A stretch of 64,000 nucleotides of DNA from Candidatus Kerfeldbacteria bacterium (GTDB taxonomy: Bacteria; Patescibacteriota; Patescibacteriia; UBA9570; XYC2-FULL-38-9). The DNA lies in NCBI GenBank assembly GCA_016182555.1, contig JACPGJ010000007.1, positions 53 through 64,052 on the forward strand, read 5' to 3'. Both the position numbers and the translations under genes were made by a program. Below the pieces are notes generated by a model. It was not told the DNA's origin. It saw nothing but the letters and a program-made list of their open reading frames with translations, and searched no databases. Shown in pieces: positions 16,436 through 58,310 of the stretch (within the stretch, counting starts at the first letter, position 1; each line of letters starts with the position of its first letter).

Positions 16436-16902
16436 ACGCTACGTATTATAGCGCAATCTGAACAGTATTTCAATAGCCACACATACTATCTGTAACACAA
16501 CGCCATTCTAACCGCATGCGTAGCGACGGCTCTTTTTTTTGTGACTTGCCTAATATTAGGCAAAATATTGTTGGCGAATTTGAGACGGCTAAAAAATCTG
16601 TGGATAACTTTGATAAAAATCATTTTTCTTACTTGCATAAAAAAATATTCGATCTATACTGCATGATAGATACTATTTTTTCAACACTAACTGAACAGAT
16701 TATTTTTTAAAGCACCTTCTCCAATCACCATGCATTGATTCCACCCAACCAGCGGTAAGGCGATGCCTCGTTAAGAGCATCCACCCAAATCTCCTTTCCT
16801 CTGGTGAATCATTCTGCATTGTGCAGATGAATAATCAGAATCTTTGGTTGTTGGATAGATCCACCAACAAGGATATTCATTGAATTGGAAAGGAGAAGGA
16901 TC

Positions 16903-17973
16903 ATGTATGGGAACAGGTGTACTTTCAAAAATCATCATCCAAGGTGGCGCATTACGACACTCGTAACCATTTCTGCCCTACTGTTACAGCTCATGGTAAT
17001 CATGGGTTGCGGCAATGAGGAAGACGCCAACGATACGCTCGATGAAACGATGTTCGGTGAAGGGGGCGTTGATCAACCGACACTGAACAAAACCACCGCC
17101 ACTTACACTTACCACCTCCCCTACTTCAGCGGTGAGAGCTACGTCGCAACCACCTACAGCGGCCACAACGCCTGGGACTTCAACCTTTCTGGTACTTCGG
17201 GCGATGGGGACTGTGGTGAGCCTGTTGTCGCTGTCACCAGCGGGAAAATTATTGGTGTGGTCAGCACCTCAGACGCGAACTGCGAAGGGTGTACGAATAG
17301 CCCTGGTAATTACGTGAAGCTGGACCACGACATCGATAGTAATACCTCGTACTACTATCATCTGCGGGATGTGTATGTGGTCAGCGGCCAGTGGGTGCAG
17401 CAGGGTCAGGCACTGGGAACGTTGGGTGATAGCGGAAATGCGAGTGCGTGCCATCTGCATTACGAAATTCGTAATTCGTCTGGAACGCAGATCACCCAGA
17501 GCACCAAGTTCTACTTCTACAAGAACGGTGCCTACACCTCGAACACGCTCTCCAGCGGTTCCACATATACCAGCTACAACCACTACATCATCAGCAATGC
17601 CGCAAGCCGAAATGGTGGCAGCAGTAAGGTCGGCACAGCCACCACCAAGGTTGCTTACCCCGCAGACGTCGAGGGGGAAGGCTTCGTGATGTATTACAGC
17701 GGCGGCAGCTACGGAACCTGCGGCATCTACTACGAAGCGAAAGGCTGCAAGGGTGGAGACTTCTGTCCCAGCTACAACAACACCAACAGCGCCTGGCTGG
17801 TGCGCACGGGGTTCTACGCGTGGTACGATGCCTGTGGTGAAGCAGACACCTGCTGGGTAGGCTTTCCCACTGGCGATGAATTCAGCGTCTCTGGTGGCGC
17901 GAAGCAGACCTTTGAGTACGGCTACCTGGTGTATAGTACCTCCACCGGCCAGGTCACGGCCTATTCCTACTGA
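16903..17973 (+). CDS. M23 (LytM-type) metallopeptidase lipoprotein, GC-rich gene
   Basis: HNAWD (HxxxD) and SACHLHYEI (HxH) zinc motifs. Lipobox VIMGC. The ORF track starts at TTG 16885; ATG 16903 follows GGAAAGGAGAAGGA. GC is visibly higher than the flanks and a 243-aa antisense ORF is open. Confidence 0.8.
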   Translation: MYGNRCTFKNHHPRWRITTLVTISALLLQLMVIMGCGNEEDANDTLDETMFGEGGVDQPTLNKTTATYTYHLPYFSGESYVATTYSGHNAWDFNLSGTSGDGDCGEPVVAVTSGKIIGVVSTSDANCEGCTNSPGNYVKLDHDIDSNTSYYYHLRDVYVVSGQWVQQGQALGTLGDSGNASACHLHYEIRNSSGTQITQSTKFYFYKNGAYTSNTLSSGSTYTSYNHYIISNAASRNGGSSKVGTATTKVAYPADVEGEGFVMYYSGGSYGTCGIYYEAKGCKGGDFCPSYNNTNSAWLVRTGFYAWYDACGEADTCWVGFPTGDEFSVSGGAKQTFEYGYLVYSTSTGQVTAYSY

Positions 17974-18112: not shown

Positions 18113-19402
18113 ATGAAAAAAATCATCGCACTCTTATTCGTCGCCACCTTTGCCACAACTGGTTGCGCATGGAATACAACCGCGAACCAAAATGAACCAT
18201 CTGTTACGGCACAAACAAACACCGCAACAGTGGATCTTGTCGCACGTGTTCCCGATATTTACATCGAAGAACAAAATGGACAAAAGATATATCGCAACCT
18301 TGAAAAAGAACTTGCGATCGCTTTTCCCGCAGATTGGAGTTATTCCCTACCCTGGATGTATGGCACAAACACTGCGAAAGATGGATTATTAGATATCACC
18401 CATGCCGACCCTGAACGCGGTTTTCGGGAGAGTGAGATCGTCTATGAAAATGAAGGGGTAGTGTCATTCAAAATGATTTCCGATTCCGAACAGCCAGATC
18501 AATTTCAAACCTATCGCGAACTGTTTGAAGGAACAACCGAACTACCATTGGATACATCGGGTTTTGCCAATTTAACTCATACACTCACCAAAGAAGAATC
18601 GCTTATAGTTGCCGGTTATCCTGCAAAACAGTACGTAGTTGCTTCACGATCAATGAATACAGAAACACCCGTAGGAGATGATAATATGACGATCATTGTG
18701 AAAGTAGATTCGTTTCGTTTTGCCGTGTTTCAAGCAAAAATCGGTATAGGTTCTTCCCACGATACTCTCCAAGCAGATGTCATCGCTATTGCAAATTCGT
18801 TTATATTACAAACCGGCAACAATGAACCTCCGGCATTAACGATCAATAGAATAGACAAGGCTCCTGTTCGTGTTGAAGAAGGAGCAACAACGATCGGTAA
18901 AAAAAGATACGTGAACGAAACTGAGCATATCGCGCTTGAATTTCCATTTAATTGGTATCATTCTGTCCTGCGAACATATCCTCCAATCATAGAAACATTT
19001 CCACTACGATTAAGTTTAATGCGCTTTAATTCCGATTCAACACAACAGATCGGCAAAACCACACTTTCATTGTATATACAGGGTGAAACGGAGCCGGAAA
19101 CATTTGAAAAATTGCAAAAACAATTGAACACGGAAATAATTGAACAAGCGGAGAATGATCCATTACATTTGCAGATGGTATCAGTAGAAGATTTGAAAAT
19201 AGATGAAAAAAGCGGTAAACAATTTGTGTATACAAAATCAACAACGGCTGATAATACCGTAAAACAATATGGTCGTGAAATTATTGTTGCATTGAATGAA
19301 GATACGTTGCTGCAATTGCAAACATCTTATGCTGCTGGTGCAGAAATAGCCGCCATCCAAGAAGAGATCGAATTCATTGAACAAAGCATTTCGTTAGAAT
19401 AA
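18113..19402 (+). CDS. Hypothetical lipoprotein (429 aa)
   Basis: MKKIIALLFVATFATTGC signal peptide and lipobox. No recognised domain. Confidence 0.6.
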   Translation: MKKIIALLFVATFATTGCAWNTTANQNEPSVTAQTNTATVDLVARVPDIYIEEQNGQKIYRNLEKELAIAFPADWSYSLPWMYGTNTAKDGLLDITHADPERGFRESEIVYENEGVVSFKMISDSEQPDQFQTYRELFEGTTELPLDTSGFANLTHTLTKEESLIVAGYPAKQYVVASRSMNTETPVGDDNMTIIVKVDSFRFAVFQAKIGIGSSHDTLQADVIAIANSFILQTGNNEPPALTINRIDKAPVRVEEGATTIGKKRYVNETEHIALEFPFNWYHSVLRTYPPIIETFPLRLSLMRFNSDSTQQIGKTTLSLYIQGETEPETFEKLQKQLNTEIIEQAENDPLHLQMVSVEDLKIDEKSGKQFVYTKSTTADNTVKQYGREIIVALNEDTLLQLQTSYAAGAEIAAIQEEIEFIEQSISLE

Positions 19403-19869: not shown

Positions 19870-22161
19870 CTATTTCTTTTTCTTCTTCGTTGGTGTTTTT
19901 TTGGCTGGAGTAACCGTATCGGGGGCAATTGGCGTAGCCACCCCTTTCGCTCGATCCTGAAATTCCTTGGCTTTCTGCTTGGCAGCGGAATCGGCAACAA
20001 TGGGTATCTCAAAATGGAATGTCGTACCCTTACTTTCCCCCGGGGACTCGGCCCAAATCTTTCCACCATGACCTTCAACAATTTTCTTTGCAATAAACAG
20101 GCCCAAACCAGAGCCATTGGGATTCACGCGGGCAATTTCAGAGCCACGCACAAATTTGTTGAATAAATTTTTCGCCTCACCGTTGGCAATTCCCACACCC
20201 GTATCCGCAACACGCACATGAATTTTCTTGGAATTAGCCTCAGCGCTTATGGTCACCGACCCCTGTGGCGTGTATTTAATGGCATTGTCCACCAGGTTCA
20301 AAATAACATCTTTAATCTTATCTACATCAACTTCAGCTTCTGGGAGCGCCGTCTTCTTATAAATGAGTTTGACCTGTTTTTTATCCGCAGTGGGTTTCAG
20401 CTCCTTATACATCGCTTCAATGACTTGATCGAATGGCGCTGTAGTGAAATTCATCACAAAACGACCGGCCTCGATACGCGTGACGTTGAGGAAAGTGTTG
20501 ACGAGGCGAGAGAGTCGCTGAGATGCATCCAACACGTCTGAAATAACCGGCGTTTTTTCTTTATCCAAAACGCCGTAGTCCCCGTCTTTGATCATGGACA
20601 GATACCCAATAATGCCTGCCAGTGGTGTGCGCAGTTGATGCGACGCAATGGACATAAACTCAGACTTTGCTTGGTCGAGTTCTGTAAGTTTTTCGTTTGC
20701 GTGTTTTAATTCGGACGTTGCTCGCTCCACTTCACGTTCCAATTTGACGGTAAATTCTTTTGCTTCTTGGTAAAGGCGAGCTTTCTGGATACCCGAGGCC
20801 ATCTGAGGCGCGATGACTTCAAGTAGTTGAATATCATTGATTGAAAATGTATCTCCAGAACGTTTACGCGAAAGCACTAATATAGCGTCAAGTTTATCAC
20901 CAACGGCTATTGGAACAATCGCGTATGCTTTCATATTTTCGATATTGTCTCGGATTGTATCAAATTTTTTTCGCTCTTCTTTAGTTTTTGCATCTGCCAC
21001 TTTTCTATCCAATTCATCGAGAATAAGAATTTTCTTACTTTTTATTAAGTATTGAATGAGAATCGAATTATTATATATATCTATTTTATTTTTAGTATGT
21101 TGATCGGAATGATCAAGTTCTTCCGGTGAAATAAATGTATTGTTTCCTACAGGTAACAACAGTATTACATGCTCTAAGCGCAGTTGCTGCTCTAAAGCAA
21201 GAGAAAAATGTTCAATTAATTTGCCCAACTCTACTTCCTCATTAATAACATCCGTAAGATTTTTAGTAACTTGCGGATAATTAATTGCTGCTTTGAAAAA
21301 TATTTTGTTTGTGGCTTTTGCAATAAACCGTTTTATTGGATCAAGTAAGGTAACAATAATTAAAGAGGTGATAGCCAAGACTCCAATTTGACCAATACGC
21401 GAATTTTCAGAAAAATAGGTTGAACTAAGGAAAGTGATGAGTCCAAAAGTACTCATCACAATAGAAATTAATAAAGCATAAACCAGTGATCTAGTAAGCA
21501 CTGTTCGTATATCCATCAATCTATACCTAATAATGGCATACGAAGTAAAACCCAAAAATACAATTGTAGCCAAAGGGCCAATACCATTAAAACTTCTATC
21601 ATTAAAAAAGATTGGAAAAATTAAATTTGTTGTTGAAGCTATTATAACGGTTATTAAAAGACCTATAAAAAAATACTGTACTTGTCGTCTAATTAATCCT
21701 TGAAATTTAATATAACTTTTGATTAATTTAGCAAATCCCCAGAATATAAAAGTAAAAAAATATAGAGGAAATAATATTGTAATGAGCCATGATTCTATTC
21801 TTTCGCCCGATTCTGAAAAAGATACTGAAAATGGCCAAGTTGTTGTAAAAATTATTGCTACCGATGATAAAAAATAAAATAACCACTTTTTGTTTAATTG
21901 CCTTATTGGAAAATAATAAGAAAATAATACGAATAACGCAGGAAAAGCAAAGGGACCTGCAAAAACTAATTTATTAAAAAGTTTATAGTCTGGTGCAATT
22001 GTAAACATTGCAATACACATTGACCACAAGGACAAACTCGATCCAATAAGAAAAAAAGTAATATTAGTTGGATTTTTATAATTTTGTTTTAACACAAAAA
22101 ATCCCAATAAAAATAAACTTACGCTACTTAATAATTGTAAAATCTGATCAATTTTGAACAT
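19870..22161 (-). CDS. Sensor histidine kinase with N-terminal 7TM receptor domain and GAF-like middle domain
   Basis: Multi-TM N-terminus with YAIIRYRLMDIR motif. HisKA H-box SHQLRTPL. HATPase_c NLVDNAIKYT ... DTGVGI ... GSGLGL. Lys-rich C-terminal tail. No response regulator nearby. Confidence 0.85.
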   Translation of the reverse strand: MFKIDQILQLLSSVSLFLLGFFVLKQNYKNPTNITFFLIGSSLSLWSMCIAMFTIAPDYKLFNKLVFAGPFAFPALFVLFSYYFPIRQLNKKWLFYFLSSVAIIFTTTWPFSVSFSESGERIESWLITILFPLYFFTFIFWGFAKLIKSYIKFQGLIRRQVQYFFIGLLITVIIASTTNLIFPIFFNDRSFNGIGPLATIVFLGFTSYAIIRYRLMDIRTVLTRSLVYALLISIVMSTFGLITFLSSTYFSENSRIGQIGVLAITSLIIVTLLDPIKRFIAKATNKIFFKAAINYPQVTKNLTDVINEEVELGKLIEHFSLALEQQLRLEHVILLLPVGNNTFISPEELDHSDQHTKNKIDIYNNSILIQYLIKSKKILILDELDRKVADAKTKEERKKFDTIRDNIENMKAYAIVPIAVGDKLDAILVLSRKRSGDTFSINDIQLLEVIAPQMASGIQKARLYQEAKEFTVKLEREVERATSELKHANEKLTELDQAKSEFMSIASHQLRTPLAGIIGYLSMIKDGDYGVLDKEKTPVISDVLDASQRLSRLVNTFLNVTRIEAGRFVMNFTTAPFDQVIEAMYKELKPTADKKQVKLIYKKTALPEAEVDVDKIKDVILNLVDNAIKYTPQGSVTISAEANSKKIHVRVADTGVGIANGEAKNLFNKFVRGSEIARVNPNGSGLGLFIAKKIVEGHGGKIWAESPGESKGTTFHFEIPIVADSAAKQKAKEFQDRAKGVATPIAPDTVTPAKKTPTKKKKK

Positions 22162-22241
22162 AATATATTATTATTTTACATGAAACTCCTTTTGGCAGCA
22201 AAGGTGTTTATCCTTTGCTGCCAAAAATCTGCTGAATTCTA

Positions 22242-22952
22242 TCAAAATGGAAGAATGAAAAAAAACCTTCTCGGGTTACAAGGGTCCTCCCTAATTCTTC
22301 TAAACCCCATATATTTAAGATGCTTCACCAGCGTGTGTGCATCTATCAAAGTTCTACACATAACTCCGCTTTTCTGATTGCGATCTGCATTCTCTGCAGC
22401 CGCAATCAGAAAATTAACTGCTGGTAACCCCCTTACCGAAAAGAAAAAATCCAGATAACCCCTTTGATTAAGTTTATACTTAATCTTGTAACGCAATGCC
22501 AATGTTATAAGAATGCTCTCCCATCGGCTTCTGCGCAATCTAGGGTCCACTCCTATAAAATCAATATACCAATATTGATCCCCGTCAAAATTTTTATCAA
22601 ACCCCCATATCCAACCGACCAATGATCCCCCGACCGCAAAAGCAGCATACATCCAAAAGCCGGGAAACCCTTGTATGTGTAGAAGATACTCTCTAATTCT
22701 ATCACCTGACCAAAATTTAACCAATTCGGATTGACAGATAGGGCATCTACCTGGAATCCAGAACCGGGATTCCGATCTAATTCCTAGGCTCGGGTCAGTC
22801 GGAGGGGAACACTGATTACATACCCAATGATCCTCATTGAAAGGTGGTTTGCCATAAAAAGATTGAAAAAAACCTGCCAGTACGTTTGCGAAAATTTCTG
22901 GATTGAAAACCTGAGAATATACGATTGTTCTTCTCATTTTTTTCTCCTTCAA
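22242..22952 (-). CDS. Hypothetical protein with CxxC...CxxC zinc ribbon and possible GNAT-like core
   Basis: CNQC ... CPIC pairs. IDFIGVDPRLRRSRWESILITLAL is loosely GNAT-like. This is a weak call. Confidence 0.4.
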   Translation of the reverse strand: MKEKKMRRTIVYSQVFNPEIFANVLAGFFQSFYGKPPFNEDHWVCNQCSPPTDPSLGIRSESRFWIPGRCPICQSELVKFWSGDRIREYLLHIQGFPGFWMYAAFAVGGSLVGWIWGFDKNFDGDQYWYIDFIGVDPRLRRSRWESILITLALRYKIKYKLNQRGYLDFFFSVRGLPAVNFLIAAAENADRNQKSGVMCRTLIDAHTLVKHLKYMGFRRIREDPCNPRRFFFILPF

Positions 22953-23031
22953 AATTTCAAAGTCAGCATTGAAACCCCGAGGATATTATACACAAAAATA
23001 AGTACTAGTAATAGTGTGCGTAGGCAGAGAA

Positions 23032-24150
23032 TTATATTTTCATTTTGTCAAGCAGGCTGAGTAATTTTGATCTATTATACTCATCAAATGGTAACGATAA
23101 TTTTATACTATGATTATTCGCACTAGGGTATGTAATCTTATAACTTGATAAAGGCTCAGCTAAAATCCCATATTTCATAAAATACTGAAACAAATTTTTT
23201 TCTTTAAGATGATCATGTATCACAATTAATGGAACTGCATCATGTGTATTATACCAATATAAACCTATCGCACTTAATTTCGTATAAATTTTTTCTTTAT
23301 ACTTTTTTACATCCCTTCTAACGTCATTTAAACGAAAAAAAACATTATTTGCACATAACGCAACATTTGTAGAATATAAAGAGGGTTCAAATGGGGGGAA
23401 AATATTTTTTATATATGGGGCTATATTATTTGAAAAAATGCCATAGCCTACTCGAAATGAAGCCAAACCGAATCCTTTAGAAAAAGATCTAATCACCGCT
23501 ATATTATTATATTGTTTTATGAGATGTATGATTGATTCTGAATCATCTATAAAATCCCCAAATGCTTCATCAATGAATAATAAAATATTTCTTTTGTGAC
23601 AAAGAATAGCTAGTTTGTGAATATCTTTTATAGGCATCACCCAACCAGTAGGATTATTGGGTCTATCAATATATATTACAGTTGGATTTAAAAAATCAAC
23701 TTTTTTAATAACACTATCAACTATATTAGAAAAATTATTAAATCGGGAAATAAATACTAATTTTCCACCGGCAGATTGAAATTCTGAAGGTATTTCATTA
23801 AACTGCGGTCCTACTCCTAATAATAATCCTGGAGTAAGCAGCTTATGTATAATTCTTTCTGCAATATTGAAGGATCCATGTCCTAAAAAAATATTATCTT
23901 CTAACTCATCTACATTAAATCTTTGTATTATGGAATTTTTTAGATCATTATAAATTTTTATATCTGGATACTTATTTGGATGAAAATTATTTTTTAAAAT
24001 TACAAAAGCTTTATCAATACAATCAAAAAAAATTTCTGGCCCCGAACTCATTCGACAATCCAAATAATTTAAATTATACGAATAATTACTAGCATAAGAG
24101 TCTCTCTTATAATCACAAATAGATTCTTTAATGAAATTATTAGGTTTCAC
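23032..24150 (-). CDS. PLP-dependent aminotransferase, class I/II (HisC / CobD-like)
   Basis: YIDRPNNPTG and RSFSKGFGLASFRVGY motifs. Strongly AT-rich gene. Confidence 0.75.
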   Translation of the reverse strand: MKPNNFIKESICDYKRDSYASNYSYNLNYLDCRMSSGPEIFFDCIDKAFVILKNNFHPNKYPDIKIYNDLKNSIIQRFNVDELEDNIFLGHGSFNIAERIIHKLLTPGLLLGVGPQFNEIPSEFQSAGGKLVFISRFNNFSNIVDSVIKKVDFLNPTVIYIDRPNNPTGWVMPIKDIHKLAILCHKRNILLFIDEAFGDFIDDSESIIHLIKQYNNIAVIRSFSKGFGLASFRVGYGIFSNNIAPYIKNIFPPFEPSLYSTNVALCANNVFFRLNDVRRDVKKYKEKIYTKLSAIGLYWYNTHDAVPLIVIHDHLKEKNLFQYFMKYGILAEPLSSYKITYPSANNHSIKLSLPFDEYNRSKLLSLLDKMKI

Positions 24151-24217
24151 TGTTCTGTAAAAAAATAAACCCCAATTTCTTATACATTAAAAGAAACGTA
24201 TTTGCAATATCAATAGA

Positions 24218-25039
24218 TTATTTATTTTTTATCTCAACTATACGGTCAAAATGTAAAATAGCAATACACATTAAAAAATAAGCAGATAAATAAAGCATAT
24301 CCCCAAACCCATGCGCTATCCATGCTCCGCGATTAACCTGAAAAAGAAAATTAAAATCGGCAAAATATTGGACAACGAGAGCAACAAGAAACAACTGTAA
24401 TTGGGCAAAAACAGCCGAATCTTTAATATTTTTGGAAAAAATCCACAATATCAATGCTAAACCAACGTATGTCGCTTGGCCGAGTGGGTATCCGAGGTCA
24501 AAAAATAATTTGAATGGATGAGCTAAGTCGATATGATAACCGTGTAAAAAAAATCGATATGACAATACATACATCACCAATAACACCGTCCCCATTTGAA
24601 ACTTTTCCACAGGCGTTTTCATGACATCTACAATCCCTGAGCCACGCATCAACTGCATCACCCCATAAATATAAAACGGAATACTTCCGAAATAGCCAAT
24701 ATCGGGCAATGAAGGATATGGCACAGGAATATGCCAAACAATAATATACACACTAAAAAGAGTCTGGCCCAAATTTTGTAATAGCAACCCAACACTAAAT
24801 GCAAAAACAGCTCTTCGTAATAAATGATTCTCTCCTTTCCATGAATATACGATATTCAAACCGCATACACCGCCAAATAAGGCAACCAATTGATAGAATA
24901 CGCCCCAAACCATTTCACTTCGAGGTATGGTAAAAAATGGTGGGAATAACCACCAGATAAAAAAAATCATAAATAGCCCAAAGGCAACACGTGCAGAGCG
25001 ATCTTTTTTTATGAGTGCTATGATAGTATAGAGAATCAT
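24218..25039 (-). CDS. Polytopic membrane protein
   Basis: Multiple hydrophobic helices. Start re-set to ATG 25039 (MILYTIIAL), 2 nt from the upstream stop; the ORF-track start 25138 overlaps the upstream gene by 98 nt. Confidence 0.5.
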   Translation of the reverse strand: MILYTIIALIKKDRSARVAFGLFMIFFIWWLFPPFFTIPRSEMVWGVFYQLVALFGGVCGLNIVYSWKGENHLLRRAVFAFSVGLLLQNLGQTLFSVYIIVWHIPVPYPSLPDIGYFGSIPFYIYGVMQLMRGSGIVDVMKTPVEKFQMGTVLLVMYVLSYRFFLHGYHIDLAHPFKLFFDLGYPLGQATYVGLALILWIFSKNIKDSAVFAQLQLFLVALVVQYFADFNFLFQVNRGAWIAHGFGDMLYLSAYFLMCIAILHFDRIVEIKNK

Positions 25040-25040
25040 A

Positions 25041-26450
25041 TTATGAAGTATGATTTTTTTGTTGCAAAAATACTTTTGTGCCTTCAATCGTTTTTTGCCA
25101 ATAGAGCAAATGCGGTAAATTATGCTGAATGGAGTCATGAAACTCTTTCAAGCCGCGAATATCTCGGCGAGTGAATTGTTTATGGTTTTTATGTTGCCCA
25201 ATGAATACGAGCACCAACAAACGCGACTGCTTCATCACCACCATACAAATCTCTGCTTTCTTTTTCTTCATCAACCTCTGCACAGACGGTGCCATATTTC
25301 GTTCTTGTAACTCATCAAGGAACAGATACCCGCGACGGAGCGCGATGAGTTCTGCAATCACCGGTTCATCAAAAGCCACATACCATTTTGAGTGCGTGGG
25401 GAAAAAACTCTTCAACCGATGCATGTGCTCTTGCTGTACCAAGATCTCTTCCACCGGAGCCTGAATCACCTCTTGAATTGACCCCGCCAATTTAATAATA
25501 AACGATTCCAGCTCATGTGTAGAGTTCAACACGAGATTGGATTCGTGGATGAGCTTAAAAAAATCGATCTCTTCGCGGAAGAAAATGCCATCGAGAAAAT
25601 GTTTTATACGTACCTTCCCCCGTTCGAACAACCACAAAAATAACAACATAGCTACAATTAACCAAATAAATGGATGAATGTGCGCTTCCGATTCTACAAC
25701 GCGATAGACAGAAAAAATACTAACAATATAGAGCGAAGCGAATATAAACAACAAACCACCATAGACAATCGATTTTTTGAAAACAATCCGTACATCCAAA
25801 AATCTATAGCGAGTCATTGCGTATGCGGAACAGGATACAATCCCTAGTGTGGAGAGCATGGTTAATGGGAAAAATTTACGTGTGTGCAATATATCTACAG
25901 CATATAAATTGGTAAAAATCAGTGTACCAAAAGTAATCAGAAACCCATACAGAATAAATTGCGTTTGAGTACGTTTAACAACGTCATTGACTCGCAAATT
26001 TTTAAATAATAATACGCAAGAGCCGAAAATAGCTCCAAGACAATATACAGCAAAAATAATCATTCCCCACCCAGGCATAGGCATAATAATGCCATTAATC
26101 ATTTCTGAATGAGTAAATTGAAATGGTGAAAGTGCAAGTACTGCATTTACTATTGCAAAGGTGGTAAGAAAACGAAATACTCTTTTTGATAGTTTTTCAA
26201 AAACAAAAGAGTACACAAAGAGAAATGTGTACAATAAAAATAACACGATAATAAACATAGTAAGACGAACCAAAAATATATGGTAGTGCAGCAGACTGAT
26301 ATAAAAAACCAGCACCCACAATGCCAAAAAACCACTCATCAACGCAAAATAACGATTCGCCAGCTTCTCGCGGTTAAATTTCCAAGCGTATATCGCAAGC
26401 GTCGAACACCCAATGCAACTAATAATTGTGGCAATCAATAGAATATTCAT
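25041..26450 (-). CDS. 7TM receptor + GAF-like protein, paralog of the histidine-kinase sensor region but lacking HisKA/HATPase
   Basis: YAMTRYRFLDVRIVFKKSIVYGGLLFIFASLYIVSIF aligns to HK YAIIRYRLMDIRTVLTRSLVYALLISIVMSTFGLITF. C-terminus is GAF-like. No kinase motifs. Confidence 0.6.
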   Translation of the reverse strand: MNILLIATIISCIGCSTLAIYAWKFNREKLANRYFALMSGFLALWVLVFYISLLHYHIFLVRLTMFIIVLFLLYTFLFVYSFVFEKLSKRVFRFLTTFAIVNAVLALSPFQFTHSEMINGIIMPMPGWGMIIFAVYCLGAIFGSCVLLFKNLRVNDVVKRTQTQFILYGFLITFGTLIFTNLYAVDILHTRKFFPLTMLSTLGIVSCSAYAMTRYRFLDVRIVFKKSIVYGGLLFIFASLYIVSIFSVYRVVESEAHIHPFIWLIVAMLLFLWLFERGKVRIKHFLDGIFFREEIDFFKLIHESNLVLNSTHELESFIIKLAGSIQEVIQAPVEEILVQQEHMHRLKSFFPTHSKWYVAFDEPVIAELIALRRGYLFLDELQERNMAPSVQRLMKKKKAEICMVVMKQSRLLVLVFIGQHKNHKQFTRRDIRGLKEFHDSIQHNLPHLLYWQKTIEGTKVFLQQKNHTS

Positions 26451-26746
26451 AAATTCATTGTATCATACACCCTCTAAACGATCATTCGAGCCCTACTGCT
26501 TAGGGACGGGCCGAGGTGGAACCCCCACCCAACTCGGCCCGCGACGTCCCCTGTGCATATTCAGTTGTATATCCATACAACACCCCATCCGTGGGGCTGT
26601 CAAATAGCAAAAATTGGCGAAATACAGCCGTCAAACGGTCGCCAAAATACTTTAGCTCTATCCTTAGCCAAAAATACAAAAAAATACGTTATCCACAGAC
26701 GGCTCTTCATCAAACCAAATTCACAAAAAAGCCTAAGAAAACGCTA

Positions 26747-27556
26747 CTATTCACCAAACACAAACCCTTTCTGCCGAGATTCCACAGAGGCATAATCATC
26801 ATTAAAATGCGCAATGACTGTATACTGATATCGCTCTCCAGCGCGCAGCCCACCAACTTCTACCGCAGACCGGCGCACACGACGCAAGGTTTTCACCACG
26901 CGTTCACCGGACGCATCATAAATATTCACGGTATAATACCGAATTTTCCCAGCGGGTTTGCGCCAATCCAATTGCGCTACATACTTTCCGCCATCTGCGT
27001 CACCACGCCCAATCGGTTCATTGCTAAAAATATCATGCCGCACTTGATATTCATCACTCATAGCCACCAACAAACGCGGAACTGGAGGAATCGTTCGCCC
27101 CACAAGCTCCACCACATCTGAAAGAACACCATCACGTTCTGCAACCAGACGAATCGTATATCCCATGTTCTCATCTAACTCGTCAATCACTGCCGACTGC
27201 GCGAGCGTCGTCACACTCGTCACCAACACGCCACTTTTTTTCTCAAATACCTGCAACGTATAGCTCGTTTGCGAAACCCCACTGGTCATATACCGTACAT
27301 CAGAATACCATTCCACTTGCAGCGATGTTGGCGAAGGAGAAACCACATATTTTGGCTCTGGTGCAGCAACAGCTTCCACATTCTGGCCAGTGACATCTGG
27401 TATACCATACGTCACCGACGATGAACCAAGCTCCGGAATACCATAATTCGCTGCCTGCACCGGTGCCCCAGAAACACAAAATACGAAAATACTCACGATA
27501 GCTGCGCTACAGCCGAGTATAGCCACCAAGAATCGATTTGTATTGATAGATTTCAT
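26747..27556 (-). CDS. Hypothetical secreted protein (269 aa)
   Basis: N-terminal signal peptide MKSINTNRFLVAILGCSAAIVSIFVF. No recognised catalytic motif. Confidence 0.5.
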   Translation of the reverse strand: MKSINTNRFLVAILGCSAAIVSIFVFCVSGAPVQAANYGIPELGSSSVTYGIPDVTGQNVEAVAAPEPKYVVSPSPTSLQVEWYSDVRYMTSGVSQTSYTLQVFEKKSGVLVTSVTTLAQSAVIDELDENMGYTIRLVAERDGVLSDVVELVGRTIPPVPRLLVAMSDEYQVRHDIFSNEPIGRGDADGGKYVAQLDWRKPAGKIRYYTVNIYDASGERVVKTLRRVRRSAVEVGGLRAGERYQYTVIAHFNDDYASVESRQKGFVFGE

Positions 27557-27680
27557 ATATTCCTCCGTATATCATTATATTATCATAGAAACAATATAAT
27601 ATACAGCAAAAATGCCCTTTTGTCAATGCTTCCACTTGTGCACAATTGAATCAAATTTTTTGGCTAATATTAGCCTAAAT

Positions 27681-33589: not shown

Positions 33590-33970
33590 TTGCGTTAGAT
33601 TAATGATGAATGGCATTTGGTGCCTGCCCCGGTGTCGGCGACAAAACAGATGATTGACTATCAAGAACGCATTGCGGCAAAGCGCAAAAAAACCAGTGTG
33701 CCCTATTACGACGAATATGGCTCGCGCCTGGTTGCTATGCAGAAAAGTTTAAATAATACCATTTTGAATATTTGATAAGGAATTTATAGAAAAACAGACT
33801 TCTACTGATTTTTATTTTGGCTAATATTAGATAAATAATAACAGACTGTGCATAAAATTCATTGAAAAGTATGATGAAGTATGATAAATTAGATGAGCAA
33901 AAATTCGTTTTTTGAAAATTTTTTGGTTTTACCACCTAAGCCACCCAGCAAAGGTGGAAGGAGCAGACAA

Positions 33971-35713
33971 ATGAATTCGAATGAAATCGCCCAGATTCTG
34001 GGCAGCGGTAAAAGTGAGACCCAGCCCTTCGGTTTCCGGGTGCTCGTTGACCCGACCGAGGGTTTTGAGCGTTATGAAACCGTATGGGCGGAGAACGGAG
34101 GCCTGCGGGCCTTCTTGAGGAAGCTGGAAGAGATCGTTGCTCATTATGGTTGGGGCGCAGTCAAGCACCACAACCATAACAACGATTTCGCCAGTTACTT
34201 CACACACCTGGGAGTGCAATCCCAGGGTTCGGCCCTTCATCAGATACAGGCGCTCGTGCGGAATCTGGAAACACAGACGCAGGGTCCATCTCGGTGGGCC
34301 CGAACTGCAAATGTGTATCAGATCTTTCCGAGAGCGTTCAACCTCTCGGGCTGGAGGGAATTCCACGACAGACCACCCGGCACCGCAAAACCGTTTTTCG
34401 AAGAATGGGCTGCGGAGGACTTCGAAACCCTCAACGACCTCGGCTTCGATACGGTCTGGCTGATGGGGACTTTCCCTATCGGCAAGCGCGGCGCCAAGGG
34501 TGGCGAGACCGGAAATGCCGGCTCGCCCTATGCAACTACCGACCACCAGGCGCTGGAACTCAGCCTGGGGACCGAAGCGGACTTCAAACGCTTCGTTGAC
34601 ATGGCCCACGAGTGTGGAGTTCGGGTGATCCTCGACATCATCCCGAACCACACCTCGCTGGACTCGCGGCTCCTGCGCGAGCATCCAGAGTGGTTCCTTC
34701 ACCACACAAACCCGGTCGCCGGAGAGACCGCGCCCTTCGGTTCGTTCGAGCATATCGACGGAGAAGGCAAACTCTGGTGGATCCGACTCGCAGGATGCGA
34801 GTACTACGGCAAACTCACGCCGTGGTGGGATGTTGCTCAGTTGAACCTGGCACATCCTGCCGTGCGGGAGTACGTCGTAACTACGGCCTGCCGCTGGATT
34901 CGAGACTTCGGCATCGATGGGTACAGAATCGACATGGCCTATCAGCTCCTCAACAGCTACTACTCTCGCAACTGGAAGGTCCAGATGCCAGAGCGGGAAC
35001 TGCTTGAGCAGATGATCACGGCCGTGCGCGAACTGCGCCCCGATGCCGGCTTCTTCGGAGAAGCCTACGGCCGCGAAGAAGACCTTTTTCTTTGCGGATG
35101 TGACACGACACTGCAGAAATGCACGTGGTTGGACGGGCTTCGGTGGCACCAGGGCCGTGGATGCAACGTGGAGCGGATCCGAAAGGAAATTCGCAACGCG
35201 GCAACAATCCACGCCCAAACCGACGGCCCGGGTGGCTACATCTTCGTGGGAAACCACGATGAAATGCCACACACGGAGGCGTACGGTCCGTGGACACGAG
35301 GCTGCGCAGTCCTCACGATATGCCAGCCAAACGGACTGCTGATCTTCAACGGTCAGGAGATCGAATTCAGCCAGCAGTCGAAGGACGACTGGCCGAAACC
35401 GATTCCGTTCACGCGGCCGGTCAAGATCGACTGGGCAGGTGCTGACCCGGAAACCGCAAGGTTCTACCGGTGGGTGTTTCGTACTTCGAAGAGCATTAGA
35501 GAAGAGCTCGGAGATGTACAGATGCACCCGCTGGAAGATCTCAACGGCAACTGGGTGGGCTACGCGCTCACCGGCAAAGACACCACGACGCGGTACCTCG
35601 TCATCGCCAACCCAACGGACCGGGCAACGATGGCGCATGTGTACCACACCGATCTCGGGATCAATCACTCGACACCACTCATGCCATACGGCTACAAAGT
35701 GGTTCGGGTCTGA
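33971..35713 (+). CDS. GH13 alpha-amylase-family glycoside hydrolase, GC-rich gene
   Basis: GH13 regions DIIPNHTS, GYRIDMAYQ, GEAYG and FVGNHDE. ATG 33971 follows GGAAGGAG. ORF-track start 33893 lies in AT-rich flank. A 579-aa open antisense frame reflects high GC. Confidence 0.85.
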   Translation: MNSNEIAQILGSGKSETQPFGFRVLVDPTEGFERYETVWAENGGLRAFLRKLEEIVAHYGWGAVKHHNHNNDFASYFTHLGVQSQGSALHQIQALVRNLETQTQGPSRWARTANVYQIFPRAFNLSGWREFHDRPPGTAKPFFEEWAAEDFETLNDLGFDTVWLMGTFPIGKRGAKGGETGNAGSPYATTDHQALELSLGTEADFKRFVDMAHECGVRVILDIIPNHTSLDSRLLREHPEWFLHHTNPVAGETAPFGSFEHIDGEGKLWWIRLAGCEYYGKLTPWWDVAQLNLAHPAVREYVVTTACRWIRDFGIDGYRIDMAYQLLNSYYSRNWKVQMPERELLEQMITAVRELRPDAGFFGEAYGREEDLFLCGCDTTLQKCTWLDGLRWHQGRGCNVERIRKEIRNAATIHAQTDGPGGYIFVGNHDEMPHTEAYGPWTRGCAVLTICQPNGLLIFNGQEIEFSQQSKDDWPKPIPFTRPVKIDWAGADPETARFYRWVFRTSKSIREELGDVQMHPLEDLNGNWVGYALTGKDTTTRYLVIANPTDRATMAHVYHTDLGINHSTPLMPYGYKVVRV

Positions 35714-54589: not shown

Positions 54590-55339
54590 ATGAATATCCA
54601 CAAACGTTTACAAAGCATTGGCCTGACTCAATCAGAAACCGACATCTACCTCTTTCTCCTCCAAAATAGCCTTTCCTCTCCCCCTGTCATTGCAAAAGGC
54701 ACCGGAATTGCCCGCACCAATTGCTATCACATTCTCCAAAGTCTCAAAGAAAAACAATTGATATCCGAACAATCCATCTCAAAAGGAAAACGCAAAGCCT
54801 ATGTTGCTTGCGATCCACAGGCGCTCATCGAATCAATGAACCGAAAAACTGCAGCAGCGCAAGAATTGCTTCCTGATCTAAGAGCCCTATATACCGTACA
54901 AAAAAATAAACCGCTTATCCGATTCTTTGATGGATTTGAAGAGGTAAAGCAGATCTATGATCAATCGCTCACAGCAAAAAAAATTATGGGAATTGGTTCA
55001 ACAAAGCGCTTACAAGAACTCGATCCGCAATTCTATACGCATTATCTAAAACAAGTGCAAAAAAAAGGAATTGTATTTTATGATATTCTTTCACATCCAT
55101 CTGGCGAACATGCCGGCCCACACATGAAACAAATTGTGAAAGGATTATATGATATGAAACTAATCCCAAAGCAGTATGGCGATTTTGCAACAGATATATT
55201 AATTTGGGAAGATACAATCGCTCTCCTTACACTCGAAGAACCCATTTTTGGCACTACACTCACCAATCCTCTTCTTGCCAACACATTTTTGCTTCTCTTT
55301 AAAGTGTTCTGGGAACAATTGTCGAATTTTGATAATTGA
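54590..55339 (+). CDS. TrmB-family transcriptional regulator
   Basis: N-terminal wHTH LTQSETDIYLFLLQNS...IAKGTGIARTNCYHILQSLKEKQLI. TTGACA about 30 nt upstream. Confidence 0.65.
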   Translation: MNIHKRLQSIGLTQSETDIYLFLLQNSLSSPPVIAKGTGIARTNCYHILQSLKEKQLISEQSISKGKRKAYVACDPQALIESMNRKTAAAQELLPDLRALYTVQKNKPLIRFFDGFEEVKQIYDQSLTAKKIMGIGSTKRLQELDPQFYTHYLKQVQKKGIVFYDILSHPSGEHAGPHMKQIVKGLYDMKLIPKQYGDFATDILIWEDTIALLTLEEPIFGTTLTNPLLANTFLLLFKVFWEQLSNFDN

Positions 55340-55637: not shown

Positions 55638-56432
55638 TTATTTTTGCAATCGCTTACGAATATCTTGATCAAATTTTTCTGAATATTCAAAGGCGAATTC
55701 AAACATTTTTTGTAAGCAATCGGCTATGGGTTTACTTTTAATGACAAGTGCGAAATTTTCTTCGTAAGAAAAAAATATCACCGTGTGCTTATATACATTC
55801 ACTTCAATAGGATAATTACATTCGGCAGGAATAAGTCTAGAATGACGAATATGTTTCTGTTCTGTTTCAAGAGTATGTTGAATATTAAATAGTGTCGCAG
55901 GAATAATAGCTTTCACAGAAATTTTCTTTGCAACACGTTTTTTATAATAATCGGGATATAGGGATGGTAAATATTTCAATTCATCTTCATTACTTCCATA
56001 CCCAATAATGTGATCTGCTTCTTCCAATACTTGTAAAAACGCTTTCTTCATTCCTTCTTTTCCTTCATAGTAATACATTTTCGGTTTTACGGTTTCATAT
56101 TGCTGCATGGCGCGCAATTCTGGCAGCGCTGACTGAATTTTTTGTTCTTGATCTTTCAGTTGTTGCTGACGCTGTTGCACAAAACGGAGAATTTCAGTTG
56201 GATCATCAACAGAAAAGAGATACGTATTTTTTCTTTTCATGCGCTTCACAATATGAAACTCATTACTCAATTTCTGTAGCGCAAGTAATACAGTTGTTTT
56301 AGGAATTTCTAATCTTCGCGCTATTTCTGACGCCTTCTGTGGACTTTTTTTAAGCAATTGTATATAGCAGTGTATTTCCAACTCATCGAGTCCGATATTT
56401 TGTAGAAGGTTGGAAATTGATTGTTCTTTCAT
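55638..56432 (-). CDS. TrmB-family transcriptional regulator (second copy)
   Basis: wHTH LDELEIHCYIQLLKKSPQKASEIARRLEIPKTTVLLALQKL. Confidence 0.65.
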   Translation of the reverse strand: MKEQSISNLLQNIGLDELEIHCYIQLLKKSPQKASEIARRLEIPKTTVLLALQKLSNEFHIVKRMKRKNTYLFSVDDPTEILRFVQQRQQQLKDQEQKIQSALPELRAMQQYETVKPKMYYYEGKEGMKKAFLQVLEEADHIIGYGSNEDELKYLPSLYPDYYKKRVAKKISVKAIIPATLFNIQHTLETEQKHIRHSRLIPAECNYPIEVNVYKHTVIFFSYEENFALVIKSKPIADCLQKMFEFAFEYSEKFDQDIRKRLQK

Positions 56433-56573
56433 ATATCGTCAAAAATTGTTGATGTTTTTTTATCTTTCTTTAGCAAAAATAATGAATATAAATATAAAAT
56501 AAATATACATTATTGTTACCCTATACAGTTATAGTATGTTTGTAAAGCACCTATACAATTCGTGGGGTAACAT

Positions 56574-56795
56574 ATGACATTCCACACTCTTCTTCTTGCA
56601 TTGCTCTATGGTTTTGGTATCACATTCATCAGCTATCCATTGAACGCATGGGAGTACAAATGTCCACGAAGAAAAGCTCTATTCTTTTGTGTAGGAGTAA
56701 TTCTACTGGGTATATATCTGTATTACGATACAATTTCTATACCCGCGCAAACTGATAAACCGCATAAGAAAGGAAATGTACAATGTCAGGAATAA
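56574..56795 (+). CDS. Small membrane protein (73 aa)
   Basis: Two hydrophobic helices. ORF only. Confidence 0.35.
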   Translation: MTFHTLLLALLYGFGITFISYPLNAWEYKCPRRKALFFCVGVILLGIYLYYDTISIPAQTDKPHKKGNVQCQE

Positions 56796-57229
56796 CATTC
56801 CTCATCATTATGTGTGTATATGCCATACACATTGGGATCGCACTCAAGGTTGCAGAGTACATGCGCAAACACCAAACTCCGGAAGGCGCAAAAGAATGGT
56901 CAGTATTTAGCATCATGGGAGCGTTTGGGATAATTGTTCTGTTAGCTCCCAGCGATTCACCTTATTCAGCTCTCTGGCAAATGGATATAGGCGATATCGC
57001 GCTTATCGCATTCTCCGTAACCTATGCGATGATGTATCTTGGTTGGGGCATGATGCAGTGGCATCTCTACAAGATGAACAAATTGTGGAGAGCTCGTTTC
57101 AAACGGAGCATCTTTCTGAGTATCAGTGTCGGACTATTCCTTATATCTGGACTATACACCACCGCACTGCTCAAAAATGCTCCTCACTACTCTCCACCCA
57201 AAAAAGTATGTACTTGTGATTGTTCATAA
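56783..57229 (+). CDS. Small membrane protein (148 aa, 4 TM)
   Basis: Hydrophobic helices. Overlaps the previous ORF by 13 nt. Confidence 0.4.
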   Translation: MSGITFLIIMCVYAIHIGIALKVAEYMRKHQTPEGAKEWSVFSIMGAFGIIVLLAPSDSPYSALWQMDIGDIALIAFSVTYAMMYLGWGMMQWHLYKMNKLWRARFKRSIFLSISVGLFLISGLYTTALLKNAPHYSPPKKVCTCDCS

Positions 57230-57320
57230 GTAGTGATGAAATGGTTCGGCAGTACCAGTTGCGTTGAGAGCTTAGGAGGAGCTTTCCGCACAAAACTGCC
57301 TTTTTTATTTTAAACAGGAT

Positions 57321-57352
57321 GAAAGATATAGTGTGAAGGGGGTGGGGTTAAT
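57321..57352. repeat. Second copy of GAAAGA-ATAGTGT-GGG-GTGGGGTTAAT motif (first copy at 55471-55506)
   Basis: About 27 of 32 positions shared. Sits about 60 bp before the attR-like repeat. Confidence 0.45.
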
Positions 57353-57410
57353 ACAAAAAACTAGACTCCCATTTATTAATATTCTCCACCCAAAATGTTC
57401 AAACAGCGTT

Positions 57411-57450
57411 CACTTGCTCCCGCAAACGGAATATTATTCGAACAAAACAT
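57411..57450 (+). repeat. attR-like direct repeat of the tRNA-Asp 3' end/flank
   Basis: CACTTGCTCCCGCAAACGGAATATTATTCGAACAAAACAT versus tRNA-flank TCACTCCCGCAAACGGAACCTTGTTCGAACGAAAAAAG. Confidence 0.6.
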
Positions 57451-57509
57451 GAAACATACGCTATCTTTTTGACAATGAAGCTATTTTTAGGTATCTTCTA
57501 TATATTCAT

Positions 57510-57689
57510 ATGTCAAAAAAAGATATCGTAAAAGCTTTACAGAAGTATCAAAAATCTCGTCCGAATAGCACCCTGCGACGCAATTATTTGCGTTCATTCA
57601 CACCGAAGATGATTTATCGTACAACAAAAACAGAAAATCCAACCACAACAAAGGCATTAGTGAAAAAAATCTTAGATCAACTCTCATAA
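57510..57689 (+). CDS. Small ORF (59 aa) upstream of fic; candidate FicA-like antitoxin
   Basis: TTKTEN matches the inhibitory [ST]xxxE[GN] motif. Ends 3 nt before the fic ATG. Below the ORF-track size cutoff. Confidence 0.45.
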   Translation: MSKKDIVKALQKYQKSRPNSTLRRNYLRSFTPKMIYRTTKTENPTTTKALVKKILDQLS

Positions 57690-57692
57690 GGT

Positions 57693-58310
57693 ATGCCAAA
57701 AGGCAGGGGTGAAACGAGTTATAAAGATACTGCTTTTGGCATCATTCCTCGTTCAAAACTCATTCCATTAGAAATAGAGGGTATTAAACGTGTCTGGGAT
57801 TTTGTTTTACAGAAACGCCAACAATCTAAAATTCCACTTACTCCAGAATTTCTCAAAAAAATTCATCACGTGGGTTTTGCATGGATATTTCCAGAGATAG
57901 GAGGAAAATTTAGAACTATTGATGTTGAAGTCTCTTTACATACTCCTCCGAAATTTTATCTTGTACCCCAACTCATGAAAGATTTTTGTAATGACTTAAA
58001 AGAACGACTGAAGCATCTTCCATCTATTCAAGAAGAAAACTATCTTGATGAATTAAGTGAATTACTGGCATGGACGCATCACCGATTCCTGTGGATTCAT
58101 CCATTTGCAGATTATAATGGTCGTATTGGTCGTTTGTTAATAAACATTGTGTTATTGAACTTAGATTTGCCAACGATTGAACTACAAGTAGAAACTCCAG
58201 CTGCAAGAAAACGCTATGTGAAAGCGCTACAGGCTGCTGACGAGTATAATCTTGCGCCATTGAAAAAAATAATTGAAAAAGCAATTGAAGAAGCTGTTAA
58301 AGAAATTTAG
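57693..58310 (+). CDS. fic: Fic/Doc-family protein (AMPylator-type)
   Basis: Fic motif HPFADYNGRIGR (HPFx[DE]GNGRxxR). Confidence 0.85.
   Translation: MPKGRGETSYKDTAFGIIPRSKLIPLEIEGIKRVWDFVLQKRQQSKIPLTPEFLKKIHHVGFAWIFPEIGGKFRTIDVEVSLHTPPKFYLVPQLMKDFCNDLKERLKHLPSIQEENYLDELSELLAWTHHRFLWIHPFADYNGRIGRLLINIVLLNLDLPTIELQVETPAARKRYVKALQAADEYNLAPLKKIIEKAIEEAVKEI

Follow-up and report, generated by a model that had tools for sequence, protein, structure and literature searches.

Within a 64-kb stretch of DNA (hereafter, the window) from a Candidatus Kerfeldbacteria metagenome-assembled genome (MAG; Patescibacteria, candidate phyla radiation), we analyzed a block of five genes that encodes a histidine kinase, membrane proteins and two enzymes. 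We hold, with moderate confidence, that this block is the Kerfeldbacteria version of a signalling locus specific to the Patescibacteria, one in which a single transmitter would be served by several detachable sensors. The five open reading frames (ORFs), termed g1 to g5 here, are all on the minus strand, with a transcription order of g5, g4, g3, g2 and g1:

19870-22161, minus strand: g1, 763 aa, kinase with the domain order HisKA_7TM-GAF-HisKA-HATPase_c
22242-22937/22952, minus strand: g2, 231-236 aa, zinc (Zn)-ribbon GNAT-like protein
23032-24150, minus strand: g3, 372 aa, pyridoxal phosphate (PLP) enzyme of the HisC/CobD class
24218-25039, minus strand: g4, 273 aa, polytopic membrane protein
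25041-26450, minus strand: g5, 469 aa, kinase-less HisKA_7TM paralog

This co-oriented layout, first proposed in a first-pass annotation of the sequence, was reproduced both by the ORF list and by a separate gene call on this contig. NCBI protein HYV32_02550 has the same sequence as the g5 product, and the gene order recurs on a Logan contig from SRR12113422. In order of transcription, the spacers between the genes are 1, 67, ~94 (79 with a TTG start) and 80 nt. The real ATG of g4 is at 25039, 1 nt past the g5 stop, and a 306-aa g4 ORF that overlaps g5 was rejected as an over-extension.

The block was compared by all-against-all BLAST with eight related Patescibacteria loci. L002, L003 and L005 are contigs of g5 orthologs; L014, L017 and L023 were reached via g3 homologs and a distant 7TM kinase; and pattern scans of genomes and metagenomes added five loci, two of which were distinct (another Kerfeldbacteria, L006 to L010, apart from L007, a Microgenomatus). 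Conserved across the loci were one to three kinase-less 7TM proteins, the g4 family, an orthologous kinase core and a leader of ~200 nt. The kinase itself was observed in two architectures. In the window and L002, as well as in the more distant kinases of L023 and L014, it carries a HisKA_7TM and GAF input in cis. In L003, L005, L006 and L017 it is a cytoplasmic coiled-coil and GAF kinase, and genes for a g4-type membrane protein and for a 90-aa protein come before it.

The putative transmitter of the window is g1. Its HisKA_7TM domain (residues 10-218; 21508-22134) scores 35.1 bits against a Pfam gathering cutoff of 28.6 and its GAF domain (residues 321-456; 20794-21201) 27.7 bits against a cutoff of 22.4, and these are followed by Pfam matches to HisKA (residues 498-566; 20464-20670; 3.6e-17) and HATPase_c (residues 612-721; 19999-20328; 1e-25). 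The phospho-acceptor H-box (SIASHQLRTPL) and the N, G1, F and G2 boxes (DNAIKYTP, DTGVGI, FNKFVRG and GSGLGL, respectively) are readable in the translation. Both hallmarks of class-I histidine kinases, a dimerization and histidine phosphotransfer (DHp) domain with its phospho-acceptor histidine and a catalytic ATP-binding (CA) domain, are present, and g1 is predicted to be a catalytically intact member of that class. A lysine-rich tail (PAKKTPTKKKKK; 19870-19920, minus strand) closes the protein after the ATPase domain.

The kinase core (residues 471-740) has orthologs at 68-80% identity in L002, L003, L005 and L006, and the third codon positions of the core are saturated across the loci, at 34-50% identity. 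The core is likely an old gene under strong purifying constraint, because its amino acid sequence has been kept while its third positions have been saturated. The same saturation rules out a recent horizontal spread of the core, which we had considered because it could account for both the identity and the GC content being high. Over its full length the L002 ortholog is 53% identical to g1, and between these two genomes the core is conserved far above the single-stranded DNA-binding protein SSB (55%), g5 (45%) and a fibronectin type III (fn3) protein encoded upstream of g5 (41%). The sensor parts of g1 are 33% (7TM) and 61% (GAF) identical between the window and L002, and 12-22% identical between one architecture type and the other.

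The similarity between the 7TM regions of g1 and g5, initially suggested by the segments YAIIRYRLMDIRTV and YAMTRYRFLDVRIV, proved significant in the alignment and hidden Markov model (HMM) checks. Their alignment spans 477 residues with 23% identity (E=3e-15), covers both segments and owes its significance to the 7TM part. Both proteins score above the HisKA_7TM threshold, g5 with 42.5 bits (residues 8-220; cutoff 28.6), and the seven N-terminal transmembrane (TM) helices that the family requires are present. No other Pfam domain was found in g5. In the AlphaFold2 (AF2) model of g5 (predicted local distance difference test, pLDDT, of 73) a bundle of seven helices is joined by a long helix to an alpha/beta domain, which is followed by a terminal helix, and the predicted bundle resembles the folds of G-protein-coupled receptors (GPCRs) and rhodopsins. 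The alpha/beta domain, at about residues 310-420, appears to be GAF-like and divergent. A GAF-like domain had been assigned to both proteins, and in g1 the assignment is upheld by Pfam. In g5 it failed in a pairwise comparison of the C-terminal 180 residues with the GAF region of g1 (E=0.24, not significant); g5 does not match Pfam GAF, and GAF_2 matches were found in 2/10 g5 orthologs only, with E>=0.12. It was recovered when a profile of ten g5 orthologs was aligned with a profile of the GAF regions of seven kinases (hhalign probability 89.6%, E=1.9e-6, 169 columns), as well as in the AF2 model.

As had been noticed from the translation, g5 lacks HisKA and HATPase domains, and both its alignment with g1 and its AF2 model place its end where the kinase DHp would begin. 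This is the condition of a conserved family. The orthologs of g5, about ten at 36-45% identity, are all ~466 aa long with the same end point, and none carries a transmitter, as all stop after the GAF-like domain. HisKA_7TM was matched at E<=1 by 6/10 of them (best E 1.6e-11), and they share conserved motifs distinct from g1 (AMTRYRFLDVR, LNSTHELE, SFFP and HKN). That g5 is a truncated pseudogene is ruled out by the 10 equal-length orthologs with conserved C-terminal motifs. Kinase-less 7TM genes adjoin the orthologous kinase in at least four other lineages, with one to three copies beside the kinase in the window, L002, L003, L005 and L006; L007 also has them, and its contig ends before any kinase. 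This recurrence of a partner-like paralog agrees with the original proposal that the block could be an uncharacterised membrane-associated sensing system. In L006 (1630-3918; also in L008, L009 and L010) a 762-aa kinase-less protein with ~15 TM segments was observed, a tandem fusion of two HisKA_7TM-type modules.

The product of g4 had been described as another polytopic membrane protein. It is polytopic, and what that description missed was its probable identity as a sensor module, together with the leader that precedes g5. No match to g4 was found in Pfam or PDB. An exhaustive HMMER search returned a family of 445 clusters at E<=1e-3, including 87 with E below 1e-30, and the invariant motifs are PYPSxxD, YP and D..Y. 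Members mostly stand alone, with lengths of 270-290 aa; two have a source name, and each of these is a "hypothetical protein" from Patescibacteria or unclassified bacterial MAGs. Homologs of g4 lie beside kinase or 7TM genes in L005, L006 and L017, and in two copies each in L003 and L007, and translational coupling of g5 and g4 is indicated by the 1-nt spacer in the window and by 4-nt overlaps in L003 and L007. The domain was also observed in the following fusion proteins:

P0154: g4 domain, 90-aa domain, coiled coil, GAF, HisKA and HATPase_c
P0143: g4 domain and 90-aa domain
P0141: TrmB helix-turn-helix (HTH) regulator, then two g4 domains
P0152 and P0224: NB-ARC/STAND NTPase with a C-terminal g4 domain

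Because this domain recurs with kinase, HTH and STAND modules, g4 is likely a signal-input domain rather than a transporter or an enzyme, and on the strength of these fusions we consider its family to be an undescribed sensor module. A heliorhodopsin or rhodopsin identity for g4 was ruled out, as there is no Pfam match and no invariant lysine. P0145 is also among the proteins with a g4-type domain C-terminal to an NB-ARC/STAND NTPase, an unusual pairing of membrane sensor and STAND protein. Two soluble TrmB-family regulators in the window, at 54590-55339 (plus strand) and 55638-56432 (minus strand), align over their full length to the cytoplasmic N-terminal part of P0141 (E=2e-19 and 4e-33, respectively). 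This likeness gives a possible output route for g4 outside two-component systems (TCS).

P0154 represents, as one chain, the gene trio of L003, L005, L006 and L017 (g4-type protein, 90-aa protein and GAF kinase). The 90-aa domain has the motif IIGPLAWEEA...YERLFG, no significant Pfam match, and is always encoded between the g4-type gene and the soluble GAF kinase, or fused as in P0143 and P0154. The separate genes are:

L003, 14059-14337: 90-aa domain
L005, 13089-13358: 90-aa domain
L006, 7295-7579: 90-aa domain
L017, 14013-14294: 90-aa domain

Upstream of g5, in the 296-nt spacer that separates it from the fn3 gene, lies a conserved non-coding leader. It shares 77% identity with its counterpart in L002, at a distance where proteins of the two genomes are 41-55% identical. 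The order of its elements is an inverted pair (GCCGTC...GACGGC), a TTGACA-17 nt-TT(N)(N)AT promoter-like site, ACAACTGAATA, and an invariant GGGACGTCGCG that runs into a GC-rich hairpin. In the window these were located as follows:

26500-26709, minus strand: leader/promoter region, non-coding
26692-26703: GCCGTCTGTGGA
26626-26635: TTTGACGGCT
26598-26603 and 26575-26580: TTGACA and TTGTAT, separated by 17 nt
26558-26568: ACAACTGAATA
26540-26550: GGGACGTCGCG
26503-26551: GC-rich hairpin

The exact motifs recur in L002, L003, L005 and L007 and are unique within the window. An nhmmer profile built from five leaders found the L006 element, which had not been used in building it, at E=2.5e-16. In each of six lineages the element thus immediately precedes the first kinase-less 7TM gene, and no further copy was found in the window or the other loci. 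Its length is ~110-210 nt, and its positions are:

Window, 26500-26709 (minus strand): leader element
L002, 3150-3356: leader element
L003, 7125-7327: leader element
L005, 5231-5429: leader element
L006, 1478-1586: leader element
L007, 2417-2630: leader element

The hairpin shows one compensatory pair, and the folding z-score of the leader is only -1.9. No Rfam match was found, and a known RNA family was rejected on that basis. In our reading this element serves as the regulated promoter and 5' leader of the operon, on which the missing regulator probably acts.

The part of the locus that varies is a slot for enzymes, located between the sensor genes and the kinase gene. In the first-pass annotation the five genes were treated as one unit, with co-occurrence of the kinase-less paralog and the aminotransferase as a sign of it. 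This was not borne out, as g2 and g3 lack a homolog in every locus that carries a g5 ortholog, and no g3 homolog stands beside the g5 orthologs of the related loci. The enzymes in the slot are instead:

Window: g3 and g2
L005 and L006: pyruvoyl arginine decarboxylase (PvlArgDC), EamA and a stand-alone LPG_synthase_C
L003: PvlArgDC, a small 4-TM protein and an NNMT-type methyltransferase
L017: AdoMet_dc, EamA and LPG_synthase_C; further upstream a g3 homolog, a GCS2-like ligase, AstE/AspA and Trp dioxygenase
L002, L023 and L014: PaaK-like adenylating ligase, ThiF, a nitroreductase-like protein and an alpha/beta hydrolase
Extras: ELFV dehydrogenase (L002); DAO and a g3 homolog (L014)

Different as these sets are, they have a theme in their chemistry: amines or amino acids are formed and derivatised, by decarboxylation, transamination or deamination, then by N-acylation, aminoacylation, ligation or methylation. 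To judge from these gene contents, the slot holds a swappable cassette and not a fixed pair of kinase-less paralog and aminotransferase. The PaaK-like, ThiF, nitroreductase-like and hydrolase cassette was found next to 7TM-GAF kinases at L002 6378-12002, L023 94-4597 and L014 1716-7448. Its ~500-aa protein was considered as a YcaO cyclodehydratase of an azoline-forming ribosomally synthesized peptide set; this was ruled out, the protein being a PaaK-like adenylate-forming ligase (PDB 4r1l, 1.3e-9).

In the window the cassette is g3 and g2. The product of g3 matches Aminotran_1_2 (PF00155) at 3e-35 (122.5 bits, cutoff 19.7), its motifs NNPTG, DEAF and SFSKGFG with the PLP lysine look intact, and its best PDB matches are HisC (2.7e-20) and a CobD-like protein (2e-11). 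It had been placed in the class of histidinol-phosphate aminotransferase and threonine-phosphate decarboxylase. Fold and best models uphold the class, and the scores fall short of either specific function: 131.4 bits against a cutoff of 276.55 for TIGR01141 (hisC), and 122 against 290.55 for TIGR01140 (CobD). About 120 homologs, at roughly 27-42% identity, were found in Patescibacteria, and by its sequence g3 appears to be a class I/II PLP-dependent enzyme in a Patescibacteria-specific subfamily of the HisC/CobD clade. In L014 and L017, kinases of the same kind as g1 also have a g3 homolog as a neighbour. More usually (L018, L020, L021 and L022) the subfamily is found in an operon that lacks sensors and combines a GCS2-like ligase and an MR_MLE enzyme with a deacylase (AstE/AspA or M20) and a GNAT protein. 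These operons also hold a chorismate-mutase/methyltransferase fusion, and they resemble N-acyl-amino-acid racemase salvage pathways. The N-succinyl/acyl amino-acid racemase salvage operon comprises a GNAT protein, an enolase-superfamily racemase and a deacylase; Pfam scans found no MR_MLE racemase and no M20 or AstE/AspA deacylase in the window block.

The Zn-ribbon predicted for g2 (C40xxC43...C65xxC68) was corroborated, in that its cysteines are invariant in the sole homolog, P0019 (46% identity), found in 5.8 billion clusters. The match of g2 to Acetyltransf_1 (PF00583; E=5.8e-4) has 20.6 bits against a cutoff of 20.7, and a sequence search of PDB found nothing. With an AF2 model of low confidence (pLDDT 50), 50/50 of the top Foldseek matches in PDB were GNAT acetyltransferases (E 4e-4 to 6e-3). 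The canonical Q/RxxGxG/A acyl-CoA loop is replaced by RLRRSRW. That g2 is an ortholog of the GNAT proteins that follow g3 homologs in L020 and L021 was ruled out, as there is no significant similarity. P0019 (L011 2422-3654) is translationally coupled to a class I methyltransferase, and near it is a convergent gene for a 131-aa protein with a sub-threshold receiver-domain match (Pfam 8e-5).

All five genes had been called markedly AT-rich, which holds only for g3 and the sensor half of g1. The GC content at third codon positions (GC3) of the 43 genes in the window has a mean of 0.41 (standard deviation 0.10). The lowest value of all is that of g3 (0.169; overall GC 27%), codons 1-470 of g1 have a GC3 of 0.22, and ordinary values were obtained for g2 (0.37), g4 (0.33) and g5 (0.41). 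The kinase core of g1, at 0.49, is above the window average. This sharp step within the kinase gene (0.22-0.44 in the sensor half vs 0.49-0.61 in the core) was observed in the window (19870-22161, minus strand) and at L002 12018-14276, L003 14344-15828 and L005 13401-14828; it is common to the kinase orthologs of 4/5 lineages examined and weak in L006. Because the step recurs in orthologs, the kinase gene is not a recent chimera.

No response regulator had been seen in the window, and our searches agree. A home-made receiver HMM found no receiver domain in the six-frame translation of the 64-kb window, nor did Pfam scans of 36 window ORFs, among them a set of response-regulator size. We infer that the response regulator is unlinked to the locus.

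Based on these data, we propose that g5 and g4 are input modules without an output of their own, because g5 has no DHp or CA domain and the g4 domain is fused to outputs elsewhere. Both would share the membrane with g1 as accessory co-sensors, possibly as hetero-oligomers formed via the 7TM bundle, the GAF domain or the signalling helix, and would tune g1 autophosphorylation upon additional membrane or extracellular cues. The kinase would then phosphorylate a conserved, unlinked response regulator, which may act back on the conserved leader. The g3 and g2 genes would be a laterally exchanged cassette in the variable slot, encoding a PLP aminotransferase or decarboxylase-type enzyme and a GNAT acyltransferase that probably make or convert an N-acylated amino acid or amine, and their product may be a ligand or a controlled output of the sensors. 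CobD, one of the two characterised proteins closest to g3, is a decarboxylase and LPG_synthase_C has a GNAT fold, and for that reason g3 and g2 are possibly a non-orthologous analogue of the decarboxylase and acyltransferase (with EamA) of the sister loci. A link between the enzymes and the sensors is plausible.

Several observations weigh against this model of one transmitter with detachable sensors. The receiver HMM found no receiver domain in L001-L010 or L014-L019 either. L002, the closest syntenic locus, has no g4 homolog. The window lacks the 90-aa connector that goes with g4 in every locus with a soluble kinase; this fits g1 having its own membrane anchor, yet it leaves no evident way for g4 to couple to g1. 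The GAF assignment of g5 holds at the profile level only, and the model as a whole is drawn from gene neighbourhood, fusions and homology. Finally, all-against-all BLAST found no homolog of g2 or g3 in any of L002 to L010, and the link between enzymes and sensors may be accidental, because g3 is an outlier in composition and its family is found mostly in sensor-free metabolic operons.

These last points lead to a tentative but serious alternative, in which g5, g4 and g1 signal and the enzymes are unrelated cargo. The g3 and g2 genes would then be a laterally acquired fragment of an amino-acid salvage operon, of the type that combines an aminotransferase with a GNAT protein or amide ligase, an enolase-superfamily racemase and a deacylase, lodged in a recombination-prone slot. 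Such an origin would account for the GC3 of g3, the absence of both genes from L002-L010, the usual occurrence of the g3 family in operons (L018, L020, L021, L022) that lack sensors, and slot enzymes that are wholly different from lineage to lineage. However, the cassette lies within the operon, where the spacers are 67-94 nt long and there is no noteworthy internal terminator-like site; g3 homologs adjoin the same kinase families in two independent loci; and the common amine and amino-acid chemistry of the cassettes is not expected from random cargo. A further view, that the cassette makes a lineage-specific amino-acid-derived molecule which is exported, sensed by co-diversifying 7TM, g4 and GAF domains and relayed via the kinase core as in quorum sensing, seems to us quite unlikely. 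It would explain why identity has dropped to 33% or less in the fast-diverging sensor parts and is still 68-80% in the transmitter core, but ordinary membrane domains are also expected to diverge fast. The cassettes are biosynthetic in type, with the exporter EamA alongside in L005, L006 and L017, the conserved leader would permit autoregulation, and the predicted 7TM fold is GPCR-like. Yet the window has no exporter, complete pathway or response regulator, and its cassette is two enzymes only, one of them nearly an orphan.

It is also improbable, in our judgment, that g5 is a kinase-dead decoy that damps signalling through non-productive heteromers with g1 and adds no sensory input. Its paralogy to the g1 input region and its end point, just where the DHp starts in g1, are what a decoy would be expected to show, but g5-type proteins, in up to three copies, also lie beside soluble kinases without a 7TM partner domain (L003, L005 and L006), and the motifs that g5 orthologs keep, distinct from those of g1, suggest a specific function. 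A defence system was considered as well; among the block proteins, PADLOC models gave only generic HATPase similarity of g1, and that reading was dropped.

Much of the proposed one-transmitter, several-sensor locus is assembled from known parts. Class I histidine kinases, HisKA_7TM, GAF, PLP fold type I and GNAT are established superfamilies, and kinases with accessory sensors are known as a kind. HisKA_7TM has been listed as a sensor domain of unknown ligand in a census of archaeal TCS (PMC5847659). As in the HisKA_7TM (PF16927) kinases of haloarchaea and Firmicutes, g1 joins the 7TM domain to GAF and HisKA/HATPase domains, and g1 and g5 both exceed the gathering threshold; the g5 family differs in having the domain without a transmitter, with one to three members encoded beside a kinase that is sometimes soluble. 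In the literature we found passing mentions of HisKA_7TM as a sensor domain only, and nothing on stand-alone members or on this locus. Cytoplasmic kinases fed by separate membrane receptors are also found in the chemoreceptor-CheW-CheA, sensory rhodopsin-transducer and heliorhodopsin-kinase neighbourhoods (PMC8612252), and in the trio of the sister loci the input would pass through a small connector protein. In contrast to these, the proteins here have no homology to methyl-accepting chemotaxis proteins, CheW, CheA or rhodopsins, g5 matches no rhodopsin family, and the kinase is a class-I HisKA enzyme.

The enzymes stand in a similar relation to known families. While g3 shares its fold and PLP-lysine motif with the HisC/CobD clade, it scores under half of either equivalog cutoff, and its subfamily usually lies next to amide ligases, racemases and deacylases. 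The putative core of g2 resembles that of GNAT N-acyltransferases, and g2 differs in its Zn-ribbon insert, non-canonical acyl-CoA loop and single known homolog. Histidine kinases may be governed by accessory membrane proteins, as in LiaF-LiaS, BceAB-BceS, YycHI-WalK and transporter co-sensors, where sensing is likewise delegated in part to membrane proteins encoded next to the kinase. The accessory proteins of the present locus appear unrelated to those, g5 being a paralog of the kinase input and g4 being fused elsewhere to kinases, HTH or STAND modules, and there is no adjacent response regulator. New here are the kinase-less HisKA_7TM/GAF-like family, the g4 family and 90-aa connector with their fusions, the use of one core with split or fused inputs, and the leader.

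Bacteria of the candidate phyla radiation have tiny genomes and are host-dependent, and to our knowledge almost nothing has been established about how they sense their environment. Here, several kilobases are devoted to multiple membrane sensors that would converge on one strongly conserved kinase. The locus offers a new sensor-domain family with fusions, an output-less 7TM/GAF receptor family and a ~200-nt leader in which the missing regulator should find its binding site. Should the enzymes of the cassettes make the ligands of these receptors, the radiation would have its first defined signal-and-receptor system. We give little credence to the most far-reaching version, a previously undescribed modular architecture in which g4-family sensors and GPCR-like kinase-less 7TM/GAF receptors plug into one conserved kinase, with an autoregulatory leader and a cassette-made, lineage-specific, amino-acid-derived signal; were it true, it would be a quorum-sensing or host-sensing circuit in ultra-small episymbiotic bacteria.

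The genes that flank the block are ordinary chromosomal ones, encoding SSB, an NYN-domain protein, an asparaginase-like protein, an M23 peptidase, PGK, enolase and iPGM, and further IleRS, RecO, tmRNA and tRNA-Asp. The nearest neighbour upstream of g5 is:

26747-27556, minus strand: fn3 protein with two fn3 domains (Pfam fn3 8.7e-13) and one N-terminal TM segment, signal-anchored

Its orthologs (41% identity) occupy the same position in L002 and L007, and we regard this syntenic neighbour as a possible partner on the outside of the cell. A TTGACA-17-TATATT site is located by this gene at 27598-27626. Convergent with the kinase gene is a gene for a 429-aa protein (18113-19402, plus strand) for which no Pfam match and no homolog in the related loci were found.

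Other regions of the window also stood out in composition. The GC-rich outliers are the M23 peptidase gene (16885-17973, plus strand; GC3 0.675) and a gene for an alpha-amylase-family protein (33893-35713, plus strand; GC3 0.69), the latter shadowed by an antisense 579-aa ORF (33929-35668) that is probably a composition artefact. A low-GC stretch at 55638-58310, with a TrmB regulator and a Fic/DOC protein (57693-58310; GC3 0.24), may be another laterally acquired patch.

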